Origin: a virus
Taxonomy: Duplodnaviria > Heunggongvirae > Uroviricota > Caudoviricetes
DNA length: 24,929 nucleotides
Virus record (IMG/VR): IMGVR_UViG_3300042923_000186
Coordinates: 64,001 to 88,929 of that record
Direction: 5' to 3' (one strand)
The translations under genes were made by a program, and so were the position numbers. Positions 2,565-11,303 of this stretch are shown here, one piece after another. How positions within the stretch are numbered: the first letter of the stretch is position 1; every line of letters begins with the position of its first letter. The notes beneath the pieces were generated by a model, which saw only the letters and a list, made by a program, of their open reading frames with translations, was not told the DNA's origin and made no database searches.

Positions 2565-2719
2565 ATTTAAATCTAAACGCACAATCTAGCGTCTCCTTCG
2601 TTTCGAGCGTTAGCGAGAAATTACTATTGACGACTTGTGCGTAAACATAAAGCGACTCAGAGACATAGGCAACGCACTTGCCCTGCTCCCGAGTGCGATT
2701 CGTTAAATCGCTTTATGTT

Positions 2720-2798
2720 TGGCTGGCTACCTCGGAATCGAACCGAGCTATTCATTGATTAACAGTCAAGTCCTTGCACCTTGCTTGGATTCTAGCCA
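2720..2798 (-). tRNA. trnN: tRNA-Asn(GTT)
   Basis: Loop CT-GTT-AA, T arm CTCGG-TTCGATT-CCGAG, GCCA end; A8. Confidence 0.88.
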
Positions 2799-2933: not shown

Positions 2934-3006
2934 TGGTTGCGAACGCCGGAATCGAACCGTCCTGTGAGCTTATGAGACTCACATGCGCCACTACATCTCT
3001 ATCGCA
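2934..3006 (-). tRNA. tRNA with CAT anticodon (Met/fMet/Ile2 identity unresolved)
   Basis: GTGAGT-CTCATAA-GCTCAC, T-loop TTCGATT, ACCA end; mismatches in acceptor and T stems. Confidence 0.72.
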
Positions 3007-3073: not shown

Positions 3074-3102
3074 ATATTATCATAGCTACCTACGTTTGTC
3101 AA
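3074..3102 (-). promoter_or_regulatory. sigma70 promoter inside tRNA array
   Basis: TTGACA-aacgtaggtagctatga(17)-TAATAT with extended TG. Confidence 0.75.
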
Positions 3103-3124
3103 TAGCTAGCTACAAAATTTATTC

Positions 3125-3211
3125 TGGTCTGTGTGGGTGGCTTCGATCCACCAAGGGTTTCCCACTCGCTTCCAAGGCGAGGCCGCTACCTGATTACGGG
3201 GCTACACACAG
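3125..3211 (-). tRNA. trnP: tRNA-Pro(TGG) with long variable arm
   Basis: Acceptor CTGTGTG/CACACAG (C1-G72, A73), CTCGC-CTTGGAA-GCGAG, variable arm TGGGAAACCCT, T-loop ATCGAAG. Confidence 0.88.
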
Positions 3212-3352
3212 TTAAAAGAGTTTAACGACATCGTTTGTTGGTCGGACCTTTAACGTTCTCTTCGGACGTACACACTATCTCCCCGTGTGTAATGGGATTT
3301 GATACTAACGACGCTTGCGTCACTACCCGCACCCTGCGCTTTCTCAGGCTCG

Positions 3353-3428
3353 TGGTTCCGGTTGCAGGACTTGAACCCGCCACCTGACGATTACAAATCG
3401 CCTGCTCTACCAGATGAGCTAAACCGGA
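3353..3428 (-). tRNA. trnT: tRNA-Thr(TGT)
   Basis: Canonical cloverleaf, GGCGA-TTTGTAA-TCGTC, ACCA end. Confidence 0.95.
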
Positions 3429-3429
3429 A

Positions 3430-3780
3430 TTGTTCGGTCCCGCTTACTGATACGGGGACACCTGTTGGCACGGTGTCAGGACCCACCACGGTCAAGGAGA
3501 AACATTTACAACTTACTGCCGCCTTTCGGCGTTTATAGCTGCCCGGCCTCTAACAAGCCACGAAGGCACAATAGACTATTGCCGGGACTTACTCTGAAGG
3601 GTAGCTGCCGTATAAGCTAATCGGAGCAACCCGTAACTAGCTTATTTCGGGGACAGGATATTACGCCGGGAGCGATGCAACAACGCTCCTTCGAGATACG
3701 ATCACCTCCTTTCGGTAGGTCAATCAAGACTCGGCAGCTACCCAAACTGTACTACTAATTCTGCCCTGAATCTCTCAGGT
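3430..3780 (-). ncRNA. putative ~350-nt structured RNA / leader of tRNA operon
   Basis: Starts at promoter 3787-3815; perfect 12-bp stem (3599-3610/3732-3743) and many nested hairpins; no supported ORF. Confidence 0.6.
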
Positions 3781-3786
3781 AAAGCG

Positions 3787-3815
3787 AGTATAACCGACGA
3801 TCCTGCATTTGTCAA
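3787..3815 (-). promoter_or_regulatory. sigma70 promoter of tRNA operon
   Basis: TTGACA-aatgcaggatcgtcggt(17)-TATACT; GTAGCTAGCTA directly upstream of -35. Confidence 0.85.
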
Positions 3816-3841
3816 TAGCTAGCTACCTAAATACCGTCAGG

Positions 3842-4183
3842 TTATACTTCCTGCAAGTTGTCGAAGTCGATAGACGGGCCTTGCTTCTTCTGTGTACCAC
3901 CAGCAGTTGATAGCTGGGGAATCATCCCCTTAGCCTTAATCTCTGCTACTTGCCGTAGCAAGCCATCCTTAGACACTACCTCTGCCACCTTGACCTGAAG
4001 GTCAATCAGCTTCTCTGCGGCTGTACGCCGCTCTTTCAGCGACAATTCCTCGTTGTTCATCGTTTGTACAAGAAGGTCTACGGCAGCAGGCGTAGCCCGC
4101 TCTAGGCTCTTGTACAGGTCAGCCAGTTCATGCTTTCGTTTCACGAAAACCGGAGACTCTACGGCCTCCACTACCTTGCTCAT
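3842..4183 (-). CDS. hypothetical helical protein, candidate terminase small subunit
   Basis: 113-aa ORF with RBS GGAG and its own promoter; helical, disordered C-tail; upstream of and co-oriented with tRNAs and terL. TerS call is positional only. Confidence 0.75.
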   Translation of the reverse strand: MSKVVEAVESPVFVKRKHELADLYKSLERATPAAVDLLVQTMNNEELSLKERRTAAEKLIDLQVKVAEVVSKDGLLRQVAEIKAKGMIPQLSTAGGTQKKQGPSIDFDNLQEV

Positions 4184-4244: not shown

Positions 4245-4410
4245 ATGCTAATGTGTAGTACACTACTTAGTTGTACACTACATGTAATGTGTTATATAAC
4301 TATAGTATATAACTAAGTTGTACTACTAGGTTCTTTCTCTCTTTAAAGGAGAGAGAAAGGAGGGTATATAACAGAGTTGTACTACTTAGTTATATAACAT
4401 AGTACTACTG
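4245..4410. repeat. AT-rich array of short palindromes and direct repeats
   Basis: GTTATATAAC (x2), TAGTACTA, TATATAAC-NN-AGTTGTACTACT (4307-4328 and 4365-4386), central 10-bp inverted repeat CTTTCTCTCT/AGAGAGAAAG (4333-4359). Confidence 0.8.
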
Positions 4411-4421
4411 CTTTTAAAACC

Positions 4422-4450
4422 ATTATACACGCTACCTACGTTCCTGTCAA
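4422..4450 (-). promoter_or_regulatory. sigma70 promoter (leftward, reads through the AT-rich array)
   Basis: TTGACA-ggaacgtaggtagcgtg(17)-TATAAT. Confidence 0.85.
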
Positions 4451-4465
4451 GCCCGGCGAAGGTAG

Positions 4466-4494
4466 TTGACAGCTAGGTAGGTAGCTAGTAGACT
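4466..4494 (+). promoter_or_regulatory. sigma70 promoter (rightward, back-to-back with 4422-4450)
   Basis: TTGACA-gctaggtaggtagctag(17)-TAGACT. Confidence 0.85.
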
Positions 4495-4529: not shown

Positions 4530-5288
4530 GTGAATATTGTATTATCTACCACAAACGGCGTGGCAACCATGTCATCCCTTGAGATGGTCGCGTACATCAA
4601 CGCTACGCGTGAGCCGGGCAAGGCCGAGCTTCGCCACGACAGTTTCATGGCTAAAGTGCCGACTGTACTCGGGCAGGAATTGGCTCCAAAATTTATTGGA
4701 ACCAATCAGTACACCAGCGGAAAGGGTGGAACGATGACCCGTGCGATCTACAACTTCCCTAAGCGCGAAGCCTGCCTGATGGCGATGTCGTACAGCTACG
4801 AGCTTCAGGCCAAGGTGTTCGATGCATGGGTGGAGGCGGAAGAGAAGCTTGCCAAGCCCGTCACAGTGCTTCCGAACTTCGATGACCCTATCGCAGCAGC
4901 CAGAGCTTGGATCGAAGCCCGTGAAGCAGAGAACACAGCCAAGGCCCAGCTAGCTATCGCCACTACCGCAATCGTTCAGGCTCAGCCGAAGGTGGAATTC
5001 CACGACGCAGTTGTAGCAGGAGATACTGTGTACTCTTTGAACGATGCAGCCAAGCTGCTTAAAACGGGCCGTACCAAGCTTTTCGCGTACCTGCGTAAGC
5101 ACATGTACCTTCAGCACAACAACGTGCCCTATCAGCGCGTAATCGAGGCTGGGTGGCTGGAGTCTGCATTCAATAGCTACAAACTCCCTGACGGACGGGT
5201 AGCTCCGCCCACTACGTACATGACTAGCAAGGGCTTAGCCTACTTCCAACCAAAAATAGCACTTGCGAAACAGGAAGGAAGCTTGTAA
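4530..5288 (+). CDS. phage antirepressor-like protein (Rha-like N-terminus, KilA-C/ANT C-terminus)
   Basis: TMSSLEM...RHDSFMAKV...YNFPKREACLMAMSYS; LPNFDDPIAAARAW; QPKVEFHDAV...AAKLL..GRTKLFAYLR...PYQR.IEAGW; RBS AAGGAG. Confidence 0.88.
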   Translation: MNIVLSTTNGVATMSSLEMVAYINATREPGKAELRHDSFMAKVPTVLGQELAPKFIGTNQYTSGKGGTMTRAIYNFPKREACLMAMSYSYELQAKVFDAWVEAEEKLAKPVTVLPNFDDPIAAARAWIEAREAENTAKAQLAIATTAIVQAQPKVEFHDAVVAGDTVYSLNDAAKLLKTGRTKLFAYLRKHMYLQHNNVPYQRVIEAGWLESAFNSYKLPDGRVAPPTTYMTSKGLAYFQPKIALAKQEGSL

Positions 5289-6675: not shown

Positions 6676-7383
6676 ATGTCCAAGAAAATCGTCGGCTACG
6701 TTCGCGTTTCCACCAAAGAGCAAGGCAAGTCTGGTCTGGGTCTTCAGGCCCAGCGTGAAGCACTCCAGCAATGGGCTGCTGCCAAAGGCTACGACCTTGT
6801 ACACGTCTTCGAAGAAGTGATTAGCGGTGCTGTGCCAGTTGATGGTAGGATCATGCTCTCGCGTGCGTTCAAGCTCGCTGCAAAGCACAAAGCGACCGTA
6901 GCAGTTAACCGTCTTGACCGTCTCAGCCGTGATGCGGAAGTATTGCTGCACCTGAGTAAAGCAAAAACGCCTATCGTCGCCCTGAACCTCGGTGAAGACG
7001 TAGACAAGTTCATGTTTGGTATCCACGCCGTGGTAGCTGAGCGAGAGCGTGTCCTTATCTCCATCCGCACGAAGGAAGCCCTTAGCGTGCTCAAGGCTCA
7101 AGGTAAAAAGCTGGGCAACCCGAACATCGAAGATCGCATCACGGATGATGGCCGAGTGGTCAAGGGCATCCACACGTCTCTAGCTATGGCTCGTACGAAG
7201 GTTACTTCCGACGCTGACGACTTCGCAAAGAACATGCGCCCTGCTATCGAGCGTATGCAGCGTCAAGGCATGTCCCTGCGGAAGATTGCAGCCGAGTTCA
7301 ACGCAAACGGTACGAGAACCGCACGGGGCGGTGACTGGACATCTACGACGGTGAAGAACATTACGGCCCGTTGGGCCGAATAA
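6676..7383 (+). CDS. serine recombinase (resolvase/invertase catalytic domain with C-terminal DNA-binding domain)
   Basis: GYVRVSTKEQ catalytic Ser motif, EEVISG, DRLSR, ER..ISIRTKEAL...K.QGKKLGNP, C-terminal TARGGDWTSTTVKNI. Confidence 0.93.
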   Translation: MSKKIVGYVRVSTKEQGKSGLGLQAQREALQQWAAAKGYDLVHVFEEVISGAVPVDGRIMLSRAFKLAAKHKATVAVNRLDRLSRDAEVLLHLSKAKTPIVALNLGEDVDKFMFGIHAVVAERERVLISIRTKEALSVLKAQGKKLGNPNIEDRITDDGRVVKGIHTSLAMARTKVTSDADDFAKNMRPAIERMQRQGMSLRKIAAEFNANGTRTARGGDWTSTTVKNITARWAE

Positions 7384-8221: not shown

Positions 8222-9270
8222 TCATGGAAAACACGAACGACAAGACGGCTGTGCAGATGCCACGGCCAGCGGGATACCTGTACGAACTAACATTCGACGG
8301 GCACACGAGCACTGCATTCACGATGATCACGATTGCGCAGCCGGGTCAAGAAAATCGCCGAGCCGTGTTCACGCAAGATCAGGTTGACGCCGTGGCCGCC
8401 GCCCGTGCGGAAGAGGCGCGGCGGGAAGAAGCCGCCATTTACGATCCGATAATCCTTGATCTTCGCAAGGAAATCGCGCGGCTCGCTCTCAATGCCACCC
8501 AGCGCACGGCGGGCGGGGAACTGGTCTACCAGATGCGGCCTTCCAAGGGCAGCCAAGCGGGCGGCCAGTGGTACACAACCGATGTAGACGGCCCGACCAG
8601 CATTGCGCGGAATCCGCAGTGGGCTGACCTGTACGAATTCCGCACACTGCGCGTGGTTCAACCAGTGGCAGAGGCAGCAGCGCAGGCGTATGACGTGCTA
8701 GTGCCTCGCAAGCTGCTAGAGTGGGCGCAGCAGAATATCGATTGCATCGAGGATCAAGATGAACGGGAAAGGGTCAGTGCTGAGATATCGAAGTATCTCA
8801 CCGCGCCCACAGCACAGCCGACGACAGAACAGCAGGCTGAGATCAATGCCGCACTGGATCGCGCTGACGCCGAAGACGCAGCACAGCCGCCGCCGGATGA
8901 CATCGGTGACGTGCATGACCGTGCCTACTTTGATCGCGCCTTGGCCGCTGCGCCCACAGCACAGCCGACGCCAGAATTTGCCCACGACATGCAAATGCTT
9001 GCCGAGGTGATCCCCGGGCCGGGTCCGGACGGCATTCACCCGTCTGCCGCTGGCCGTGCAAAGGTGGTGCAGGCGATGGCAGCACAGCCGACGCGGCAAC
9101 GCTACACCTGTATCGGCAAAGGTGGCTCCTACGTTCTTCTGGGCCTCGCAAAAGGCTCTGGAACGTCAAAGCTGCTTGACGACTTGATGGTGTACCAAGA
9201 CACGGCCACGGGAGCCCTGTATTTCCGTACGCCTGATGATTTTAATAACAGAATGGAGGTGACACTATGA
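8218..9270 (+). CDS. mosaic multi-module hypothetical protein with C-terminal DUF1653-like domain
   Basis: Start reassigned (ATG 8218 or 8224); repeated APTAQPT linkers; C-terminal RYTCIGKGGSY...LMVYQD..GALYFRTPDDF..RM. Confidence 0.78.
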   Translation: MIMENTNDKTAVQMPRPAGYLYELTFDGHTSTAFTMITIAQPGQENRRAVFTQDQVDAVAAARAEEARREEAAIYDPIILDLRKEIARLALNATQRTAGGELVYQMRPSKGSQAGGQWYTTDVDGPTSIARNPQWADLYEFRTLRVVQPVAEAAAQAYDVLVPRKLLEWAQQNIDCIEDQDERERVSAEISKYLTAPTAQPTTEQQAEINAALDRADAEDAAQPPPDDIGDVHDRAYFDRALAAAPTAQPTPEFAHDMQMLAEVIPGPGPDGIHPSAAGRAKVVQAMAAQPTRQRYTCIGKGGSYVLLGLAKGSGTSKLLDDLMVYQDTATGALYFRTPDDFNNRMEVTL

Positions 9271-10070: not shown

Positions 10071-11303
10071 ATGACCCAACAAAACACCACGGCCAAGCAA
10101 GTTATCTACGAAACCGGCTCCAAGCCTATCAAAATCTGGACGGATGATGTAGAGCCAGATGCTTTGCAGCAGTTGAAAAACATCGCCCGTCTACCTTTTG
10201 TGGCTAAGACTGGCATTGCTGTAATGCCTGATGTCCATCTTGGTAAAGGTGCAACAATAGGTAGCGTAGTTGCGACTACCTCGGCCTTAGTCCCAGCCGC
10301 CTGTGGAGTTGACATCGGCTGTGGCATGGTAGCGTGCCGTCTGTCGCTGAAAGCGTCCGATCTGCCCGACTCCCTGTCCCGGCTTCGCTCTGCCATCGAG
10401 CAACGTGTTCCTGTGGGCGCTGGACAACACAAGACCCGAGACATCCCGGATAACTGGGGTGCAGGCGTGCTAAAGGGAGGGTACGCGTTCGATATCCCGT
10501 CCTCTGTTCTTAACGTGTTCGACGGGGATGTAGCCAAAGCTGCGACAAAAGGAGCACACCAACTAGGTACGCTTGGTAGCGGCAACCACTTCATCGAAAT
10601 CTGCATTGATGAGAACGAAGATGTCTGGGTGATGCTGCATTCCGGCTCCCGTGGCATCGGCAACATGATTGGTAGTTACTACATCGACAAGGCCAAGGAA
10701 CTGATGGAGCGATTCCATATCAAGCTGCCTGACGGCGACCTCGCCTACCTTCCACAAGGTGATGACCTGTTCGATGACTACGTAGCTGCCGTGGCATGGG
10801 CACAGGACTACGCGATGGAGAATCGCAAGACCATGCTAGCCGCCGTGCTGGAAGCTATGAAGCAAGAAATCCGAAAGGAATTCAGCATTACCGAAGAGGC
10901 AATTAACTGCCACCATAACTACGTAGAGAAGGAGAATCACTTTGGACAGAACCTTTGGATCACTCGCAAGGGCGCTATCCGGGCACGAGAAGGCGACTTG
11001 GGCATTATTCCCAGCGCTATGGGTAAAACCAGCTTCATTGTACGAGGCAAAGGAAACAAGGAATCATACTGTTCATGCAGCCACGGTTCCGGCCGTAAAA
11101 TGTCCCGGACGGCAGCGCGTAAACAGTTCACCGTCGCAGACCTCGTGGAACAAACGAAGGGCGTAGAGTGCCGGAAGGACGATGCTGTACTGGACGAGAT
11201 TCCAAGTAGCTACAAAGACATCGAAGTAGTGATGAAGAACCAAGAATCGCTGGTGGACATCGTTCACCGCCTTCGTGCCGTCCTGTGCGTGAAAGGAGCT
11301 TGA
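10071..11303 (+). CDS. rtcB: RNA 2',3'-cyclic phosphate/5'-OH ligase RtcB
   Basis: MPDVHLGKG, GVDIGCG, LGTLGSGNHFIE, LHSGSRG, NCHHNY, RKGA, SHGSGR, DEIP..YK motifs. Confidence 0.96.
   Translation: MTQQNTTAKQVIYETGSKPIKIWTDDVEPDALQQLKNIARLPFVAKTGIAVMPDVHLGKGATIGSVVATTSALVPAACGVDIGCGMVACRLSLKASDLPDSLSRLRSAIEQRVPVGAGQHKTRDIPDNWGAGVLKGGYAFDIPSSVLNVFDGDVAKAATKGAHQLGTLGSGNHFIEICIDENEDVWVMLHSGSRGIGNMIGSYYIDKAKELMERFHIKLPDGDLAYLPQGDDLFDDYVAAVAWAQDYAMENRKTMLAAVLEAMKQEIRKEFSITEEAINCHHNYVEKENHFGQNLWITRKGAIRAREGDLGIIPSAMGKTSFIVRGKGNKESYCSCSHGSGRKMSRTAARKQFTVADLVEQTKGVECRKDDAVLDEIPSSYKDIEVVMKNQESLVDIVHRLRAVLCVKGA

Follow-up and report, generated by a model that had tools for sequence, protein, structure and literature searches.

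Structured non-coding RNAs of phages, such as GOLLD and ROOL, are often encoded near transfer RNA (tRNA) genes. In the account given by the review PMC4113751, the STAB-SD of the B. thuringiensis cry3A messenger RNA (mRNA) (Agaisse and Lereclus 1996) is a Shine-Dalgarno (SD) sequence that does not initiate translation, binds the 30S ribosomal subunit and blocks decay of the mRNA. The Pseudomonas phage PAK_P3 produces two small RNAs, sRNA1 and sRNA2, which are abundant late in infection, have no start site of their own and are processed from a longer transcript, sRNA2 being located between two tRNAs (PMC4933390; PMC10914365). In cells infected by phiKZ, the tRNAs of the phage sediment together with 30S fractions (PMC8545117). 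Here, we describe a non-coding RNA of about 350 nucleotides (nt), referred to as the leader RNA, which is encoded on the minus strand of a 24,929-nt stretch of DNA from an uncultured soil phage (positions 64,001 to 88,929 of IMG/VR record IMGVR_UViG_3300042923_000186; hereafter, the window), between a promoter and a tRNA-Thr gene that begins at position 3428. The window makes up the final 24.9 kb of a viral record that is 88.9 kb long and has terminal repeats, and its tRNA region is syntenic to the one that contains sRNA1 and sRNA2 in PAK_P3. The leader RNA represents a genuine non-coding RNA family, with which the primary transcript of the tRNA operon begins and which accounts for its first 280-350 nt. 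Our preferred reading of its function, to which we assign a probability of roughly 0.38, is that it would dock a 30S subunit and shield the tRNA precursor in a STAB-SD-like manner.

A family of leader RNAs at the head of a tRNA operon

Transcription of the leader RNA probably starts near position 3780, downstream of a sigma-70-type promoter (3787-3815, minus strand) which consists of a -35 element TTGACA (3815-3810), a 17-nt spacer and a -10 element TATACT (3792-3787), with 11 of 12 consensus matches. At the other end, the leader RNA adjoins the gene of the 76-nt tRNA-Thr (UGU) (3353-3428, minus strand), the first tRNA of the array, which was identified by both ARAGORN and Rfam scans. No terminator-like site was found on the minus strand from 3786 to 3429; the direct contact with tRNA-Thr fits co-transcription with the tRNAs, and release of the leader RNA by RNase P is therefore the natural inference, in which case the 5' maturation of tRNA-Thr would set its 3' end.

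When the stretch 3429-3786 was compared with Rfam 15, whose families include GOLLD, ROOL, RNase P RNA and 6S RNA, no match reached the gathering threshold, and at E<=10 there was only a 17-bit chance match to CC2171. Neither a riboswitch nor a T-box was matched in Rfam even at E<=10, and ARAGORN detected no tRNA and no transfer-messenger RNA in the stretch. A blastn search with positions 3100-3850 against cultured phages returned the tRNA-Thr gene as the sole match, and a search for relatives with the 113-amino-acid open reading frame (ORF) located upstream of the promoter gave no match.

Relatives were recovered at the level of the terminase and of the RNA itself. A terminase search led to four related viral contigs, and scans with conserved blocks of the RNA yielded further homologues in viral contigs and in one metagenome. 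A covariance model built from ten relatives with the window excluded (R1) recovered the window at 111 bits (E = 3e-32) and added one further contig. The family comprises 12 distinct phage contigs, the window and 11 others, with one copy per genome. An equivalent promoter (TTGACA-N17-TAnnnT) before the RNA and a tRNA-Thr after it are present in 11 of the 11 contigs that cover this part, and the large terminase (TerL) proteins of the family are only 72-73% identical. R1 detected no homologue in PAK_P3, PaoP5, L010, L012 or L015. A first scan of prokaryote genomes gave none. Some initial candidates, namely L020 from a metagenome, L029-L031 from metagenome-assembled-genome contigs, L032-L036 and L038-L042, are chance pattern matches that R1 rejects.

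Two members show peculiarities at this locus. In L022, an HNH endonuclease gene (8407-8727, minus strand) is inserted between the leader RNA and tRNA-Thr. The sequences L019 11513-11738 and L024 1-253 are the two ends of one 91.8-kb contig, whose terminal repeat lies inside the leader RNA with about 180 nt in common; this repeat may reflect an assembly break or a real genome end near the tRNA operon.

A covarying fold with a conserved four-way junction

The 357-nt stretch folds at -126.5 kcal/mol, which corresponds to z = -3.0 against dinucleotide shuffles, and none of 100 shuffles was as stable. In a model-guided alignment (A5), standard pairs occupied 93.5% of the cells, compared to 34-46% in a control in which the 3' partners were slid by 1-3 columns. 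Compensatory changes were observed in 28 of the 48 modelled pairs, and the observed values were not reached by any of 500 column shuffles. By helix, compensatory pairs amounted to 7 of 8 in P0, 5 of 12 in P1, 0 of 9 in P2, 5 of 5 in P3, 7 of 7 in P4 and 3 of 5 in P7. The transcribed strand is fixed by the frequent G-U pairs, and the insertions and deletions of the core are scattered events of 1-2 nt, which argues that nothing is encoded there.

The leader RNA is modular, being composed of the 5' hairpin P0, a 145-nt junction, a linker and three leader hairpins, P5-P7 (all coordinates on the minus strand). P0 (3765-3779) is formed by CCUGA/UCAGG in the window. The relatives have a different hairpin at this place, the changes in the 7 pairs mentioned above affect both sides, and the window aligns poorly here. 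The conserved core is a four-way junction made up of P1-P4 (3599-3743) and closed by the 12-bp helix P1 (3743-3732 with 3610-3599), which is 96.5% paired. Within this helix, P2 is a GAAA-capped hairpin (3700-3725) with a 5' strand at 3725-3714 and a 3' strand at 3712-3700. It is followed by a predicted pseudoknot part (3669-3698), in which UAUCU (3698-3694) and CGA (3693-3691; S1a) precede the hairpin P3, or S2 (GGAGCG/CGCTCC, 3689-3684 with 3674-3669), whose loop (3683-3675) holds an invariant GUUG(CA) as the candidate S1b. The last part of the junction (3612-3668) contains the joining segment J3/4 (3668-3646) and P4 (3645-3637 with 3619-3612). The 17-nt loop of P4, L4 (3636-3620), is near-invariant and resembles the 16S tail; it may pair with J3/4, a pairing that fits the sequences and in which changes are one-sided only. 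Across the core, invariant bases occupy 42 of the 71 unpaired positions compared to 21 of the 64 paired ones, an excess that points to tertiary contacts or binding sites.

A first-pass annotation of the window had proposed a highly structured non-coding RNA at the head of the tRNA operon. This proposal holds in view of the promoter, the stability of the fold, the homologues in 11 other contigs and the comparison with Rfam 15. Every helix listed there is present at its place on the minus strand, and the model-guided alignment of the family brings out the compensatory changes in 28 of 48 pairs. The idea of a single structured RNA of about 350 nt needs revision: the RNA is indeed structured, but it is modular, with a 145-nt junction, a lineage-specific insert and a separable leader domain.

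One invariant helix strand is complementary to the 16S rRNA tail

The 3' strand of P2 (3712-3700; hereafter, the SD arm) reads AAAGGAGGUGAUC and over 12-13 nt is complementary to the free 3' tail of 16S ribosomal RNA (rRNA), AGGAGGUGAUC; in the window, at least 11 consecutive bases are complementary. No other site of this kind exists in the 88.9-kb genome. The arm is invariant in the family, whereas the 5' strand that masks it varies, and compensation within P2 is one-sided only. Located about 70-80 nt from the predicted transcription start, the arm is followed by no ORF, and the window contains no ATG, GTG or TTG 4-12 nt downstream of it. A small ORF after the arm, either with an AUC start or as a 42-codon TTG frame (3745-3617), was considered and rejected, the frames being broken in relatives.

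The P2 hairpin contributes -6.7 to -8.4 kcal/mol, and pairing of the SD arm with the 16S tail -14.3 to -20.7 kcal/mol, or -20.2 to -22.3 kcal/mol with a tail one base longer. In comparison, all competing internal partners of the arm reach only -5 to -11 kcal/mol: -4.9 to -6.2 kcal/mol for AUCUCGA, -8.9 kcal/mol for the linker sequence UUCUCCUUG and -9.4 to -10.6 kcal/mol for loop L4. The arm-linker and arm-L4 pairings fit the sequences; their bases are invariant and without covariation support. From these energies, the arm would therefore be masked yet readily taken by the ribosome.

Relation of the core to a widespread phage motif

On sequence grounds, one arm of the junction and P3 together make up a divergent version of a motif common in phages, in which a 12-13 nt complement of the 16S tail without a start codon is followed by AUCU and then by an H-type pseudoknot. 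The first-pass annotation had not recognised the RNA; there is indeed no Rfam family for it, but its core holds this recurrent motif. The motif is present in PAK_P3, where the arm and AUCUC lie just after the annotated promoter_18, ahead of an unannotated odd tRNA. In PaoP5, it is located inside the tRNA array, and both copies belong to tRNA regions upstream of terL. In the PAK_P3 leader, only the 47-64 nt segment of the motif is conserved between the PAK_P3 and PaoP5 genera.

A scan of IMG/VR viral contigs for the arm plus AUCUC identified at least 109 contigs. Among the scanned copies, no canonical start codon at SD spacing opened a substantial ORF, three of them having only a frame of 27-29 codons. 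About 70% of the copies are intergenic and have the same orientation as the genes around them, in many cases only a few bases from the upstream stop codon and between late structural genes. In a second scan without the AUCU requirement, AUCU was present in 33 of 37 new copies, and the exceptions GUCU and ACCU still pair with AGGU. The stems of the pseudoknot covary freely, S1 being seen as CCC/GGG, CGG/CCG, CAC/GUG, CGC/GCG, CGU/ACG and CUCA/UGAG. Under strict rules, a pseudoknot was found in 21 of 84 distinct copies versus 1.7 in shuffles and 1 in a shifted register. An alignment of the motif copies with MAFFT placed the variable stems out of register. No Rfam family was found at the motif in 16 motif loci, and the literature searched contained no description of it, the arm sequence retrieving only papers on 16S primers for the polymerase chain reaction.

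Some of the copies lie in recognisable gene contexts. In Firmicutes-like phages (among L085, L112, L120 and L050), the motif is located between a small gene ending in ...YPCKPDIFE..YE..E and a gene with a scaffold-like motif, NLQ(F/L)FA, near its start. In the T7-like contigs L107 and L110, it is located between the capsid gene and a gene similar to that of tail-tubular protein A. Both kinds of site are late-operon junctions.

The leader RNA family and the widespread motif have in common the arm (A)AGGAGGU(U)GAUC(C) without a start codon, a short spacer ahead of AUCU, a covarying hairpin (S2, equivalent to P3) that begins one base after a 3-4 nt S1a, and, as far as PAK_P3 and PaoP5 are concerned, a position in a tRNA region upstream of terL. 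In the window, AUCU occupies 3697-3694, 1-4 nt after GAUCC; it can pair with AGGU and is invariant in 12 of the 12 family members. The S1 of the family would be formed by CGA(N) with (G)UUG, a compatible pairing in which both strands are invariant and hence beyond covariation testing; in L027, a perfect CGA/UCG adjoins S2a. As judged from the fit to the pseudoknot, the S1 pairing of the motif template would be the reason why AUCUCGA and GUUGCA never vary. The family differs from the usual motif in that its arm is also masked by an upstream strand (P2), and in that the module sits, along with a fourth arm (P4), within a junction closed by a 12-bp helix. The loop between S1b and S2b is CAU or UUGCAU instead of the usual UUA/UNAA, and the family copy follows a promoter within the P1-closed junction, whereas the usual motif lies just after a stop codon in an operon.

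Linker, insert and 3' leader domain

The linker that connects the core to the 3' domain contains UUCUCCUUG (3493-3501, minus strand), an invariant single-stranded sequence which resembles an anti-SD sequence and can pair with AAGGAGG. It is invariant in the alignment, including L010, and was found in every family sequence examined. In L022, just upstream of the HNH gene mentioned above, there is a sequence CCAAGGAGAAC that is an 11-nt perfect complement of the invariant linker motif GUUCUCCUUGG.

In the window, the linker region is extended by a 94-nt insert (3502-3595, minus strand) with two hairpins, CCCGGC/GCCGGG and CGCC-GAAA-GGCG. This insert is lineage-specific and absent from all 11 homologues, and no second copy of it was found in the genome or in the relatives' loci examined. 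Two public runs (X3 and X5) do hold contigs that span the insert and are about 90-93% identical to the window; these show the presence of the DNA, and the run X16, which is labelled RNA-Seq, is probably DNA as well. In L022, a small duplication is found at the position of the insert.

The 3' tRNA-leader domain (3429-3493, minus strand) comprises P5 (3493-3480, loop GUGGUG), P6 (3477-3457, GACACC/GGTGTC), P7 (3456-3439, CCCGU/GCGGG) and a 10-nt tail that leads to tRNA-Thr. The same three-hairpin layout appears in the minimum-free-energy folds of most relatives, in which the stem sequences differ, the P5 loop includes UGGU, P6 varies and the 8-nt loop of P7 is conserved. No run of U residues follows P7. 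A GGTCC/GGACC helix, which according to the first-pass annotation closed a junction at the 3' end, turned out to be specific to the window, the relatives having the successive hairpins P5-P7 instead. In the more distant L010 (TerL 63% identical), the promoter is followed only by the 3' leader domain, and neither the junction nor the SD arm was found anywhere in its genome, which is 96% complete.

Genome setting and tRNA array

On the minus strand, the 113-amino-acid ORF (4183-3842) is followed by a 2.7-kb ORF-free, tRNA-rich stretch, an HNH gene (1126-719) and the large terminase gene. The terminase shares 43% identity with its counterpart in the PAK_P3 group of Pseudomonas phages, which equal the window phage in size and layout and in which tRNAs and small RNAs likewise precede terL. 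Within a few kb of the array, Pfam matches were obtained for an RtcB RNA ligase (10071-11303, plus strand; E = 1.7e-124), a serine recombinase (6676-7383, plus strand) and a KilAC antirepressor (4530-5288, plus strand).

An 18-nt word, TAGCTAGCTATTGACAAA, spans the -35 region of two promoters of the tRNA region (3095-3112 and 3808-3825, minus strand). An exact copy of it is present at a promoter of L002 (651-668), an unrelated 48.7-kb phage contig; this contig was the only match of the promoter-word search and showed no homology to the leader RNA. Between tRNA-Thr and the next tRNA-like gene, GUUAAACUCUUUUAAC (3211-3230, minus strand), partly kept in L019, resembles the boxA antitermination sequence of rRNA operons.

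ARAGORN identified seven tRNAs in the array of the window. The spacers had been regarded in the first-pass annotation as possible sources of further non-tRNA RNAs, but at least four of them contain atypical tRNA-like genes missed by ARAGORN: on the minus strand, the Rfam tRNA model gave matches above its threshold at 2178-2260 and 2341-2421, and weaker ones, below the threshold, at 2938-3005 and 2494-2564. On visual inspection, Pro(UGG)-like and Asn(GUU)-like cloverleafs can be drawn in further spacers, at about 3135-3225 and 2700-2790 (minus strand). The class-I amino acid tRNAs (Thr, Pro, Lys and Asn) of L007, L008/L019, L009, L010, L016, L022 and L027 are 84-95 nt long, with apparent long variable arms that are unusual for bacterial-type tRNAs, while the tRNA-Thr of the window is normal. 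In PAK_P3 (L044), an unannotated tRNA-Asn(GUU)-like gene lies at about 4065-4150, between promoter_18 and tRNA-Tyr, and sRNA2 (about 4345-4478) ends in a T-arm plus a CCA-like sequence; judged from this sequence, sRNA2 may be an atypical tRNA rather than a regulatory small RNA.

Possible functions of the leader RNA

According to our preferred reading, host RNA polymerase would start at the strong sigma-70 promoter and the nascent RNA would fold into the P0 hairpin, the P1-closed four-way junction and the three leader hairpins, before a cut by RNase P at tRNA-Thr would set the 3' end. A P2 hairpin of purposely low stability would hold the complement and give way to the 16S tail, and a 30S subunit would be captured on an untranslatable RNA. 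Acting in cis, the docked subunit would then protect the long tRNA precursor, which is not translated, or mark it, against nucleases that depend on a 5' end and possibly also against Rho. We favour 30S docking because the SD arm is invariant while its masking strand drifts, and because the 16S tail out-competes the internal partners in the calculated energies. It is further favoured by the recurrence of the arm, AUCU and the pseudoknot without a start codon in more than 100 IMG/VR contigs, by its presence in PAK_P3 and PaoP5, the closest phages in culture, where it also falls within a tRNA region, and by the precedent of STAB-SD, a proven non-initiating SD that binds 30S and stabilises an RNA (PMC4113751).

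Several points weigh against this reading. In most relatives, an extra U after GGAGGU breaks the complement after 8 nt. A simple stabiliser needs no 145-nt junction with about 40 invariant unpaired bases, and L010 runs a tRNA array with neither the junction nor the arm. Since tRNA arrays are highly structured, they may need little protection from Rho. The two strands of S1 are both invariant within the family, and STAB-SD acts against RNase J1, an enzyme that the host of the phage may lack.

The complement could also act in trans. The released junction, freed by RNase P and perhaps also by RNase E cutting in the linker, would accumulate as a decoy, occupy the anti-SD tails of host 30S subunits and shift which mRNAs initiate. 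We consider this doubtful, although it ranks first among the alternatives. The 16S tail has a very strong complement here, the junction shows the compactness and high conservation of a stable particle, and the 5' domain is a separable module next to a linker that is an insertion hot-spot; moreover, the non-coding RNAs of the syntenic region of PAK_P3 are abundant late in infection (PMC4933390; PMC10914365) and phage tRNAs of phiKZ co-sediment with 30S fractions (PMC8545117). However, the genes of the window phage use SD sites themselves, so that a global block would harm the phage, a single gene copy would have to titrate thousands of ribosomes, and the usual location of the widespread motif, inside operons and after stop codons, suggests an action in cis. 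Ranked next, and likewise doubtful, is a switchable ribosome trap: tRNA-processing enzymes of the host would excise the RNA, the opening of P2 would let the complement seize a 30S subunit, L4 and the linker would set the threshold as competitors, and the small motif would be the minimal form of a general and as yet undescribed handling of 30S subunits by phages. Less probable than either is a conformational switch or base-pairing regulator, in which the SD arm would toggle among P2, AUCU, L4 and the linker UUCUCCUUG, sensing some factor to tune the processing of the operon, or in which the anti-SD-like loops would mask SD sites of mRNAs in trans. The arm does have four alternative internal partners of similar energy (-5 to -11 kcal/mol), L4 and the linker are invariant and anti-SD-like, conserved unpaired bases are typical of aptamers, and the linker motif persists in L010 without an SD arm, hence with a role of its own. 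On the other hand, neither a terminator, a sequestered start codon or another expression platform nor a target was found, Rfam gave no riboswitch or T-box even at E<=10, and the alternative pairings use invariant bases, none of them supported by covariation.

If the likeness to an SD sequence were incidental, the junction could be a protein-binding or nuclease-resistant scaffold that lures away a defence protein or an RNase of the host, or that blocks exonucleases at the 5' end of the precursor. Its sequence is indeed conserved beyond the needs of pairing, and the tRNA-repair functions of the phage (RtcB) suggest a conflict over RNA. We rank this possibility lower still, as no candidate protein partner was found and as unrelated phages, whose hosts have a very different G+C content, all have an arm that fits the free 16S tail over its full length, which is hard to explain without the ribosome. 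Finally, a plain transcribed leader that only spaces the promoter from the first tRNA would agree with the lack of the 5' domain in L010 and with the 94-nt insert tolerated in the window. It is very improbable in view of the compensatory changes in P1, P3, P4 and P7 and of the approximately 40 unpaired bases that are invariant across phages with TerL proteins 72-73% identical.

Whichever of these functions applies, the family offers a concrete handle, namely a covarying fold whose one invariant helix strand is a partner of the mRNA-docking tail of the ribosome, and it links to a short motif that occurs in more than 100 viral contigs and is absent from Rfam. If docking of 30S holds true, phages would use non-initiating SD elements as a general device on untranslated or intergenic RNA, whereas such elements are so far known from a few Gram-positive mRNAs. 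The presence of the minimal motif in the cultured phages PAK_P3 and PaoP5 makes it open to laboratory study.

Comparison with known systems

A relation to GOLLD or ROOL, which the first-pass annotation had brought up, does not hold: the leader RNA gives no match to them in Rfam 15 even at E<=10, its core is only 145 nt long and its architecture is different. The band C and D RNAs of T4 and sRNA1 and sRNA2 of PAK_P3 are, like the leader RNA, non-coding RNAs in or beside a phage tRNA array, but with 80-210 nt they represent a shorter class. Neither by sequence nor by structure was homology found between the leader RNA and sRNA1 or sRNA2, R1 finding nothing in PAK_P3.

With STAB-SD, the leader RNA shares a non-initiating, SD-like complement of the 16S 3' end that lies in the untranslated 5' part of the transcript. 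As a short and linear element of a Gram-positive mRNA, STAB-SD acts against RNase J1, whereas the complement of the leader RNA extends over 12-13 nt and is predicted to be masked within a predicted pseudoknotted junction, and the RNA to be protected would be a tRNA precursor. Without belonging to any Rfam family, the leader RNA combines two known kinds of element, the non-initiating SD element and the non-coding RNA of phage tRNA clusters, and there is a real chance that the underlying mechanism is new.

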